Shown in pieces: positions 53,945 to 56,519 of a stretch of 64,000 bases of DNA. The notes beneath the pieces were generated by a model. It was given only the letters and a program-made list of their open reading frames with translations, was not told the origin of the DNA and ran no database searches. The DNA is from an uncultured Chitinophaga sp. (GTDB taxonomy: Bacteria; Bacteroidota; Bacteroidia; Chitinophagales; LD1), in NCBI GenBank assembly GCA_964423405.1, contig CAYREY010000001.1, positions 86,175 through 150,174 of the forward strand, read 5' to 3'. How positions within the stretch are numbered: position 1 is the first letter of the stretch; every line of letters begins with the position of its first letter. The position numbers and the translations under genes were made by a program.

Positions 53945-54919
53945 TTACCCGCCAAACAGGCTGCCGAAAAGATCGAGCTGCTGCATTTCGGGTTCTTTTT
54001 TCTTTTTGGCTGTTTTCCCCTGTGTGGTTTCGGTTACCTCGTTACCATCCTGGCGGCTGGCAACAATATGCACGGTATAGCCAGTAACTACTACCTCGCC
54101 AAACTCGTTCATTTTACGGGCTTTCTCCAGTTGGCATTTAATACGGGTGCCGTGTTTAAAAGCTACCCCATTTTTAACTACCTCGGCCTTAAAAGCCTCG
54201 TCTTTCATGGCAAAGCTGATGGTTTTCTGCTCCTGTACGTATATACCTTTCCACTTGTAATTTCCCTCGGTTAGCACCGGCGATACTACATCTATTTCTG
54301 CCTCTTCGTCGGTTTCGGGTTTCAGTACATCGGCCTTTAAAATAAAGGTATTAAACAGGGTACTTTCTACCGTTGCCGGCGGGCCCAGGGCATGGCCTTC
54401 TTCGCCATCAAACAGTTGTACCGATACTTTTACCACTTTATCGTACCCGGCCAGCTGCTTATAAAAATTAGATTTCAGCTTGTTTATTTTCAGGTTGTGC
54501 TCAAAAATATGGAGCACGTTTTCCATATCCACCTCGGCGTTTTCATCGCGCTCGGCCTGGCGAAGCTCGCGGCGCAGGGTATCTATACGTTCTTTGGTTT
54601 CGTCCTTGTCTTCTTCATTTACTGTTTTATCCAGGTCAATCTCCAGCGGCAGCATATCGTAAAACAGGCCGGCTGCAAAGTTCTGGTAGTAGGGGCTACG
54701 GCCTTTCAGCACAAAGCGTTCGGATAAACCACCCTTGCGGTTAGGGTATGGCTCTGTTTCTACCTGTAAACGAGCATTGAGGATAGATGAAATTTCTTTA
54801 AACATGGCCAGCAGACTGCTCTCGCACTTATTGCGTATCTGCGCATTCATGCTGTGCGACTCATCTGAAAAGTAATAGTGTATTTCTACCTTACCTGCTA
54901 TTTGCTGCTCTGCTGCCAT
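53945..54919 (-). CDS. Uncharacterised acidic cytoplasmic protein ending in a beta-clamp-binding-like motif
   Basis: 324-aa ORF with normal codon style; central charged helix; C-terminus KKKKEPEMQQLDLFGSLFGG. Confidence 0.8.
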   Translation of the reverse strand: MAAEQQIAGKVEIHYYFSDESHSMNAQIRNKCESSLLAMFKEISSILNARLQVETEPYPNRKGGLSERFVLKGRSPYYQNFAAGLFYDMLPLEIDLDKTVNEEDKDETKERIDTLRRELRQAERDENAEVDMENVLHIFEHNLKINKLKSNFYKQLAGYDKVVKVSVQLFDGEEGHALGPPATVESTLFNTFILKADVLKPETDEEAEIDVVSPVLTEGNYKWKGIYVQEQKTISFAMKDEAFKAEVVKNGVAFKHGTRIKCQLEKARKMNEFGEVVVTGYTVHIVASRQDGNEVTETTQGKTAKKKKEPEMQQLDLFGSLFGG

Positions 54920-55013
54920 ATTGTTTTAAAAACTAAAGGGGCACGAATGTAATTTTTTACCCTCAAGGTGCAAAGCACTTTTAATATAGCTTAATAAATA
55001 ACCCGCTGTGGCG

Positions 55014-56126
55014 CTAAAACAATTTAAGCTGTGGCTTATGGTTACCCTGCTCCAGAATAATAGCATTGCGGGTTTCTTCATAAAGGCTGTAGTTGCGTGC
55101 AGGCCATTGGCGGCCCTGTAAGTATTTTTGTCTGGCCAATGCAAACTGTGCGCGTATCAGCTCGGCAAATTTACCCTCGCCGCGCATGCGGCGACCATAC
55201 TGGCTATCGTTCAGTTTACCGCCATGCATGGTTTTTATCTGGTTAATTACTTTGTTGGCCCGGTCGGGAAAATTACGCCGCACCCAATCTTCGAATATAG
55301 TGCCGTTGTGGCCATTAAGCCTTACCACAATGTAGCTTACACTCAGCGCACCGGCATCGGCCACAGCCTGCACGGTACTAAAAATACCTTCATCGTTCAG
55401 GGCAGGTATTATGGGGGCTACATTAACATTAACCGGCACCCCTGCCGCAGTAAGGCGCTTAACAGTACGCAACACACTGTGCGCCGAAGAAGTACGTGGT
55501 TCCATTACCCGCTTTAGTTTTTCATCCAGTGTGGTTAAACTCATGGTAACCGATACCAATTGCAGGCTTGCCAGTTGTGCCAGTATATCCAGGTCGCGCT
55601 CTATCAGGCTGTTTTTGGTAATAATACCCACGGGGTGCTTAAACTTATAAAACACCTCCAGCAATTTACGGGTAATACCCAACCTGCGTTCGGCGGGCTG
55701 GTAACAATCTGTATTGCCCGATAGCATAATGCCATCAGCTTTCCATTTGCGGCTTAGCAATGCATCATTTAACAACTGCGGGGCATTGCGCTTTACCAGT
55801 ATATTCTGCTCAAATTCGGCACCAGCACTGTACCCCCAGTACTCGTGTGTGCCACGTGCATAGCAGTAAATACAGCCATGTTCGCAGCCCTGGTAGGGGT
55901 TCATGCTCCAGGTAAGGCCCAAGTCGGGGCTATCTACCTTATTAAGTATAGTTTTGGGGGCAACATCAATGTATTTTGTTTTAGGGTTTTCTGTCAGCAG
56001 TTCTTCCCTCTCCTGCTGGGTAGCCAGGTCATCGACATATAGCTGCTTATCGCTGTTTTTAAGAAACCTGTTGGCCGGGTTAAGCTGCGAACCGCGACCC
56101 TTTATATACGTATTTTCATGTTTCAT
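55014..56126 (-). CDS. PA0069/Rv2578c-family radical SAM protein (SplB-like, putative DNA repair)
   Basis: KGRG..NP.NRF start, SMNPYQGCEHGCIYCYAR (CxxxCxxC), SGNTDCYQP.E, MEPRTS, APIIPALND; ends PQLKLF; start moved to ATG 56126. Confidence 0.93.
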   Translation of the reverse strand: MKHENTYIKGRGSQLNPANRFLKNSDKQLYVDDLATQQEREELLTENPKTKYIDVAPKTILNKVDSPDLGLTWSMNPYQGCEHGCIYCYARGTHEYWGYSAGAEFEQNILVKRNAPQLLNDALLSRKWKADGIMLSGNTDCYQPAERRLGITRKLLEVFYKFKHPVGIITKNSLIERDLDILAQLASLQLVSVTMSLTTLDEKLKRVMEPRTSSAHSVLRTVKRLTAAGVPVNVNVAPIIPALNDEGIFSTVQAVADAGALSVSYIVVRLNGHNGTIFEDWVRRNFPDRANKVINQIKTMHGGKLNDSQYGRRMRGEGKFAELIRAQFALARQKYLQGRQWPARNYSLYEETRNAIILEQGNHKPQLKLF

Positions 56127-56140
56127 AGCCAACAATAATA

Positions 56141-56153
56141 CTAATATTATTAG
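56141..56153. promoter_or_regulatory. CTAA-N5-TTAG palindrome, candidate Bacteroidota SOS (non-canonical LexA) box
   Basis: CTAA-TATTA-TTAG 15-27 bp upstream of the radical SAM ATG; matches the motif as I recall it for Bacteroidota SOS repressors. Confidence 0.65.
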
Positions 56154-56224: not shown

Positions 56225-56257
56225 AAAAATACCCCGGCGATAAACACCACCGGGGTA
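56225..56257 (-). terminator. Intrinsic terminator for the small lipoprotein gene
   Basis: A-run then TACCCCGG-N12-CCGGGGTA; separates the lipoprotein gene from the radical SAM promoter. Confidence 0.65.
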
Positions 56258-56318
56258 CTACTATAGGATAGAACATCCGGCCAGGCCAGATGCCATTAAT
56301 AAATGATAGAGGCCATAC

Positions 56319-56519
56319 CTACTTCGCTGTACACTCGTAACCACGCTCTTCGTAAGCATCAATGGTCATTTGCAGACCTTCGGATTTATCCGGAAAATCT
56401 TTTGAGCAGAACTCGCGCACATCGTCGTTACCAAAATCGCAGGTATAGCATTTACTGCATGATGAAGCAGAAAAAGAAAGTAATGTTGCTACAAATAAAA
56501 AGAGTGAAAAACGTTTCAT
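56319..56519 (-). CDS. Small Cys-rich lipoprotein (paralog of 29782-29982)
   Basis: Lipobox ASSC; C-x2-C-x2-C-x10-C-x24-C ending GYEC. Confidence 0.8.
   Translation of the reverse strand: MKRFSLFLFVATLLSFSASSCSKCYTCDFGNDDVREFCSKDFPDKSEGLQMTIDAYEERGYECTAK

Follow-up and report, generated by a model that had tools for sequence, protein, structure and literature searches.

The 64-kb window analysed here, the whole of one stretch of DNA from an uncultured Chitinophaga sp., carries on its minus strand two consecutive genes, one for a radical S-adenosylmethionine (SAM) enzyme of the PA0069 family and one for a protein of 324 amino acids (aa) that belongs to PDC-S42, a family of candidate phage defence proteins. 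A CTAA-N5-TTAG palindrome precedes the first gene, and both proteins end in a peptide of the type through which clients bind the DnaN sliding clamp. The original prediction for this DNA had proposed a repair module, controlled by the SOS (DNA damage) response, in which two clamp-binding proteins are induced together. Reading the region on both strands, we found every element on which that proposal was built, namely the box, both open reading frames (ORFs), both tails, the 94-nt gap and the TACATTCG element within the gap, exactly where it had been placed. The features are as follows.

56141-56153: CTAATATTATTAG, an exact CTAA-N5-TTAG and probable operator for the non-canonical LexA of Bacteroidota
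55014-56126, minus strand: ORF of 370 aa for a PA0069-family (COG1533, 'SplB-like') radical SAM enzyme (NF033668, PF04055)
55017-55031, minus strand: QLKLF, the C-terminal five residues of the radical SAM protein, a terminal motif of the clamp-binding type
54920-55013, minus strand: spacer of 94 nt between the genes, with the conserved promoter of the second gene
54971-54974, minus strand: TTTG of that promoter, separated from TACATTCG by 19 nt
54944-54951, minus strand: TACATTCG, the -7 box of that promoter
53945-54919, minus strand: ORF of 324 aa, a member of PDC-S42 (PDLC05016)
53966-53980, minus strand: QLDLF, residues 314-318 of the 324-aa protein, a motif of the clamp-binding type in a predicted disordered tail

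Relative to the ATG of the radical SAM gene (56126), CTAATATTATTAG spans -15 to -27. The radical SAM protein has PQLKLF as its C-terminus, and the 324-aa protein has QQLDLFGSLFGG.

The radical SAM gene and its LexA-type box

The first protein scores 447.9 bits against the NCBIfam model rSAM_PA0069 (NF033668; cut-off 360), with residues 9-352 aligned to model positions 1-338 of 348, and it matches the Pfam family Radical_SAM (PF04055) with an E-value of 3e-18. Its cluster motif, C81-x3-C85-x2-C88, reads C81-E-H-G-C85-I-Y-C88. Of the label 'PA0069/SplB-like' that had been attached to this protein, the first half stands and the second holds in a limited sense only. Against the spore photoproduct lyase model TIGR03886, the protein reaches 14.7 bits, so far under the cut-off of 437.55 that it is no true SplB, and 'SplB-like' applies only as a COG label. 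What it shares with SplB of Bacillus is the radical SAM enzyme class, the CxxxCxxC cluster and a link to DNA damage; what sets it apart is this low TIGR03886 score. A sequence search of the PDB found no solved structure related to the radical SAM protein.

An exact CTAA-N5-TTAG occurs once in the window, where 1.77 occurrences are expected by chance. The box is therefore not significant alone, and its context must decide. The genome examined (4.88 Mb in 168 contigs) contains 56 exact sites, 21 of which lie outside called ORFs. The placement of the box is significant: an exact box is found within 150 nt upstream of only 15 of the 3743 genes, and these include recA, with its box at -56, as well as a second SOS-type radical SAM gene, a COG4277-like one that has two exact boxes directly upstream. 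A candidate for the repressor is encoded as well, in the form of a 261-aa ORF (C62:1888-2673) with a match to PF00717 (S24) and a helix-turn-helix-like N-terminus. At -41 of this lexA-like gene lies CTAAATATTTTAC, a box with one mismatch that is common to the gene and the divergent dinB; umuD, which is followed by umuC, has two one-mismatch boxes.

The box is also retained among orthologues, as the original prediction had suggested checking. In the 150 nt upstream of 30 radical SAM orthologues from the same taxonomic family, an exact box was found in 10 cases and a box with no more than one mismatch in 20, compared with a background of 0.4% and 7.5%, respectively, for the genes of this genome as a whole. 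A pair of boxes spaced by about 19 nt is common. Based on the boxed SOS genes in the same genome and on this conservation above background, we conclude that the box at 56141-56153 is very probably a real operator for the Bacteroidota LexA.

This conclusion also makes sense in light of published work, which confirms two points that the original prediction had stated. The non-canonical LexA of Bacteroidota binds CTAA-N5-TTAG in vitro, as observed by electrophoretic mobility shift assay, and the core of its regulon is stated to include splB/COG1533 (PMC8565304). In P. aeruginosa, PA0069 is among 15 SOS genes, according to a preprint (bioRxiv 10.1101/2022.03.14.484287, citing Cirz 2006). The window gene belongs to the same family as these SOS 'SplB-like' genes, scoring above the NF033668 cut-off, has the same CTAA-N5-TTAG type of operator and keeps the same regulon company (recA, dinB, umuDC and the COG4277 radical SAM gene); we see no difference in kind. 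Damage control of the PA0069-type family is thus a kind of result that is already published.

Further upstream, at 56319-56519, lies a gene for a 66-aa Cys-rich lipoprotein, which is closed by a hairpin resembling a terminator, with 14 pairs and a T-run, at 56228-56259 on the minus strand. A hairpin of this strength would insulate the radical SAM promoter from the lipoprotein gene.

The 324-aa gene and its surroundings

The second protein had been described as an unknown, which no longer fits. Over residues 5-318 (model positions 6-317 of 320), it matches PADLOC PDLC05016, or PDC-S42, with an E-value of 1.5e-92. PDC-S42 is one of 145 PADLOC phage defence candidates that were proposed through 'guilt by embedding' in BREX, DISARM and Type I restriction-modification loci (bioRxiv 10.1101/2024.01.29.577857). 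The protein is of similar length to members of the NCBIfam family NF053583, 'LAPAL_fam', and is homologous to them over its C-terminal half, with only residues 142-283 aligned. Its score of 48.4 bits, the only one listed for a family member, lies below the curated cut-off of 60, and we therefore regard PDC-S42 as a sister family of LAPAL_fam. All 17 family members sampled match NF053583 (best E-value 7.8e-20), and Pfam contains no match for the window's protein or for any of these 17.

The AF2 model of the 324-aa protein (mean predicted local distance difference test score, pLDDT, 79.7) suggests that the chain begins with an alpha/beta domain, passes through a helical middle into a beta-rich domain on the C-terminal side and, from residue 301, ends in a disordered, Lys-rich tail, with residues 301-324 below a pLDDT of 50. 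Polar residues that are invariant in the family (E12, H14, D19, H22, R29, N30 and E33) lie together in the N-terminal domain, where they may form an active or binding site. Among BFVD models, uncharacterised phage proteins match the predicted structure with an E-value of 2e-10. A fold search of the PDB returned no match below E 0.02, and a PDB sequence search with the protein returned none. An oligonucleotide-binding (OB) or SSB-like fold was considered and set aside, its matches (above E 0.02) being too weak to use.

Given the order of the genes, one must ask whether they form a damage-induced operon, the two clamp-docked products of which cooperate in repair or tolerance at the replication fork. 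They share a strand and lie 94 nt apart, with no terminator-like site predicted in the spacer, the RNA of which is no stabler than its shuffles (z 0.72) and forms no stable hairpin. Both tails are of the clamp type, the box ahead of the first gene is very probably functional, and in Colwelliaceae, as described below, homologues of the second gene have LexA boxes of their own. However, the adjacency itself does not recur. In a tblastn search with the radical SAM protein of 72 loci that contain the 324-aa gene, most of them with ~6 kb on each side, the radical SAM gene was found at one locus only, L001, which is that of the closest relative (87% identity). The spacer there measures 195 nt (L001:140-334) compared with the 94 nt of the window (54920-55013), and conservation is limited to the promoter part. 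Clustering of 752 ORFs from the 72 loci yielded no cluster present in more than 6 loci and hence no conserved neighbour of the 324-aa gene, and the Pfam families of its immediate neighbours are heterogeneous.

Occurrence of the two genes is likewise independent. Of the 61 genomes in the taxonomic family, 41 carry the radical SAM gene; within the genus, it occurs in 8 of the 10 with a PDC-S42 gene, as compared to 7 of the 9 without. In the placements listed, the two genes reside on different contigs, except in the window's genome and in G248, which encodes an 86% identical PDC-S42 protein.

The spacer also holds a separate promoter for the second gene. Primary-sigma promoters of Bacteroidota follow the pattern TTTG / TAnnTTTG, with TAnnTTTG as the -7 box. 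For 23 of 25 Chitinophagales orthologues of the 324-aa gene, which have differing neighbours, the upstream region shows the arrangement TTTG-N18/19-TAnnTTCG, in which the stretch of 18-19 nt ends in an A-tract and (C)GCCC follows TAnnTTCG. The original prediction had cautioned that TACATTCG could belong to a separate promoter, and this caveat proved well founded: TACATTCG corresponds to the -7 box of the conserved arrangement. Elements of the same TAnnTTCG-(C)GCCC class precede dapB, lepA, gcvP and prfC in this genome, and their placement before housekeeping genes points to an ordinary promoter for the second gene too. By the same token, we rule out that the surroundings of TACATTCG are a special regulatory site. 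We propose that the second gene is probably transcribed constitutively from this housekeeping-type promoter of its own.

In the variant with CGCCC, TAnnTTCG occurs at 24 sites in the genome, for example upstream of C1:69723-70454 (dapB), C9:67527 (lepA), C22:10346 (gcvP) and C64:15050 (prfC). The 200 nt upstream of the Chitinophagales orthologues contain no exact LexA box, and a one-mismatch box near the gene is found only at L006 (-46). As for RNA evidence, the sequencing runs that contain the sequence are metagenomic DNA only.

Judged by gene order and occurrence, the two genes are independent neighbours and not a module, and their adjacency, found in the window and in its 87%-identical relative, is lineage-specific. 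Adjacency at only 1 of 72 loci, independent presence within the genus and a separate promoter in 23 of 25 orthologues make the co-induced repair module very unlikely; the picture of 'two clamp binders in one SOS operon' stems from a lineage-specific gene order and is not one to hand on as a module.

The 324-aa gene is patchily distributed. We found 91 relatives of the protein in the protein collection and 72 loci in species-representative genomes. Within the order, 14 of 301 genomes (~5%) have the gene, as do 10 of 19 in its genus, and homologues are found in Bacteroidota, Gammaproteobacteria, Betaproteobacteria, Nitrospirota and Campylobacterota. Judging by this pattern, the PDC-S42 gene is a horizontally spread accessory gene. 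In Campylobacter jejuni and Helicobacter bilis (L065, L072), the homologue sits between hsdS and hsdR, and in three Bacteroidota loci (L068, L066, L070) it directly follows an HsdR, Type ISP or Eco57I-like gene. The full-length match and the embedding of distant homologues in Type I restriction-modification loci are thus shared with the PADLOC family as catalogued, whereas the Chitinophagales copies, including that of the window, lie outside defence islands, and no clamp-type tail has so far been reported for PDC-S42.

Other mobile settings were examined as well. A tblastn search of phage genomes with the 324-aa protein gave no match, and a plasmid search matched only chromids and one Parabacteroides replicon, all in ordinary contexts. 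An integron cassette was considered for the Vibrio copy and rejected, as no repeats were found that would place it in a cassette array. The true LAPAL genes (L107-L112) have integrase-, RhuM-, PIN- and ATPase-like neighbours, or ones reminiscent of defence islands, and no visible virion modules. The 'putative phage structural protein' label of LAPAL, which the contexts examined do not support, may be wrong.

We also scanned the regions upstream of all 72 homologues for five known LexA-type motifs. Overall counts were at chance, with the exception of Colwelliaceae, in which all four loci scanned (L044, L045, L047 and L049, from Colwellia and Thalassotalea) have AT-rich CTGT-N8-ACAG boxes, two of them exact. 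These boxes, such as CTGTATACTTAGACAG and CTGTTAATATTTACAG, are of the canonical gammaproteobacterial LexA type and precede the PDC-S42 homologue by 35-84 nt. As three of the four regions are related to one another, the boxes reflect one or two events. The other gammaproteobacterial and betaproteobacterial homologues have no CTGT-N8-ACAG boxes. In a Gallionellaceae metagenome-assembled genome, the homologue begins 58 nt past the end of mutS, with which it shares a strand (L048:3229-6945), a single case.

It is also conceivable that the 324-aa protein is an accessory factor of replication or repair, for example a clamp-tethered, OB-like DNA binder, and that the restriction-modification context is incidental. 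Such a role would suit the housekeeping neighbourhoods and housekeeping-type promoter of the Chitinophagales genes, the Colwelliaceae LexA boxes, the homologue directly downstream of mutS and the tail, of a kind typical for proteins of replication and repair; the SSB/OB fold matches, weak and non-significant as they are, would fit it too. It is harder to reconcile with a gene found in only ~5% of the order's genomes and about half of the genus, distributed across phyla and located repeatedly in or next to restriction-modification systems. Together with the PDC-S42 match, with closest structural relatives that are uncharacterised phage proteins and with OB matches that stay above E 0.02, this makes a replication or repair factor rather unlikely.

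C-terminal tails of the clamp-binding type

The published consensus for clamp binding is QL[SD]LF or QLxLxL, in a form attributed to Dalrymple in 2001. Established DnaN clients with terminal clamp motifs include Pol II, Pol IV, UmuC, Hda and MutS, and the clamp is also targeted by the SocB toxin and by TnsE of Tn7. What the two proteins of the window have in common with these is that a flexible tail ends in a short peptide of the form Q-x-x-L-F or Q-L-x-L-x-F; their protein bodies are unrelated to those of the known clients in sequence and fold, and the likeness is one of sequence alone.

Conservation of the terminal motifs, a check that the original prediction had proposed, holds for both proteins. 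A terminal Q-[LMYF]-x-L-F is present in all 30 radical SAM orthologues of the taxonomic family. In the wide radical SAM family, sampled as 91 full-length representatives of clusters at 50% identity, the motif stands at the very end in its strict form in 36 and in its relaxed form in 53. Within PDC-S42, 135 of 144 distinct full-length proteins have Q-x-x-[LMI]-F in their last 16 residues, and 141 do so when the hexapeptide form Q-x-x-[LMI]-x-[FLI] is included. Over 145 sequences, Q314 is conserved at 96%, L317 at 93% and F318 at 97%, and the Lys-rich linker ahead of the motif varies freely. The tail extends to the sister family, in which five of six true LAPAL proteins end in QLNIVF, QLTLDF, QLPLF or similar; the sixth, L112, ends in QLRLDE.

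Because both Q-x-x-L-F tails are kept family-wide, and because the tail of PDC-S42 is predicted to be disordered, docking to the clamp is plausible for each protein. We found no paper on a clamp-binding motif in radical SAM enzymes, in a literature search that covered few of the subscription journals, and the family-wide QLxLF tail is unmentioned in the searchable papers on the SOS 'SplB-like' genes. The family-wide clamp-docking tails of both families look unreported.

In this genome, a C-terminal Q[LMFYIV]x[LMI]F is found in only 10 of 3854 ORFs, compared with 3.45 expected from shuffled tails. The COG4277-like radical SAM enzyme (C42:36511-37798, 417 aa) ends in QQLSIF, so that a clamp-type tail is found on each of the two radical SAM enzymes in this SOS regulon. 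Further tails of this kind were noted in RNase HII (C69:6134-6736), which ends in SQMELFKK, in an MBL-fold hydrolase (C99:101-928), which ends in EQLQLF, and in a 178-aa protein (C131:3902-4438), which ends in EQLKLF. A 145-aa protein (C3:23484-23921) ends in a strict Q-x-x-L-F and begins with MQLQLF.

The numbers above also bear on the possibility that the Q-x-x-L-F tails serve another partner, or folding or degradation, in place of DnaN and resemble clamp motifs by coincidence. The motif is short, chance alone would supply 3.45 such tails per proteome, and the literature search found no support for clamp binding in either family. It would be surprising, however, for a coincidental peptide to keep Q, L and F at 93-97% next to a freely varying linker, and to stand at the very end in every one of the 30 close radical SAM orthologues as well as in many representatives less than 50% identical. 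Judged against the consensus, the penta- and hexapeptide variants are those of known clamp partners, and the other proteins of this genome that end in the motif include RNase HII and the second SOS-boxed radical SAM enzyme. We consider a coincidental likeness somewhat unlikely.

Proposed roles of the two proteins

We propose, with a probability of roughly 0.78, that the locus consists of an SOS-type PA0069 radical SAM gene and an unrelated, separately promoted PDC-S42 candidate defence gene. For the first gene, the non-canonical LexA of Bacteroidota would repress transcription by occupying CTAA-N5-TTAG, which would overlap the promoter, and the gene would be freed from this repression after DNA damage. 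Through its invariant QLxLF, the enzyme most likely binds the DnaN sliding clamp, and radical-based processing of lesions would then take place at clamp-loaded DNA that is damaged or gapped.

The second gene would belong to the PDC-S42/LAPAL superfamily as an accessory gene that stands alone, transcribed from TTTG-N19-TAnnTTCG. In its product, the disordered Lys-rich linker would connect a folded body with a conserved QxDLF tip, for which DnaN is again the most likely docking partner. Docking of this kind would place the activity of the protein at replication forks, where its target would probably be phage or other mobile DNA.

Several observations weigh against this reading. With no terminator predicted between the genes, damage-induced read-through into the second gene is possible in this organism, and two clamp-type tails side by side are a priori improbable when only 10 of 3854 ORFs end in this way. 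The Colwelliaceae boxes suggest that the PDC-S42 family can come under SOS control, in that lineage only. The housekeeping neighbours of the Chitinophagales copies, the window's included, provide no defence island, and our literature search found no paper on PDC-S42; none was found on 'LAPAL' either. Clamp binding by either protein, moreover, is read from a short linear motif alone and stays a plausible assignment for both.

More tentatively, PA0069-type enzymes and PDC-S42/LAPAL proteins could represent two unrecognised classes of sliding-clamp client. The first might be a lesion-processing enzyme delivered by DnaN, and the second a mobile defence effector that would sit on the host clamp and detect or block the replication of foreign DNA.

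PA0069/COG1533 radical SAM genes have appeared in the SOS regulon lists of several phyla for about 20 years. A family-wide tail of the clamp-docking type would point to clamp-loaded DNA as the site at which a PA0069-type enzyme works. For PDC-S42 and its 'LAPAL' relatives, a conserved clamp motif on a predicted disordered tail offers a falsifiable handle on how these proteins may act.

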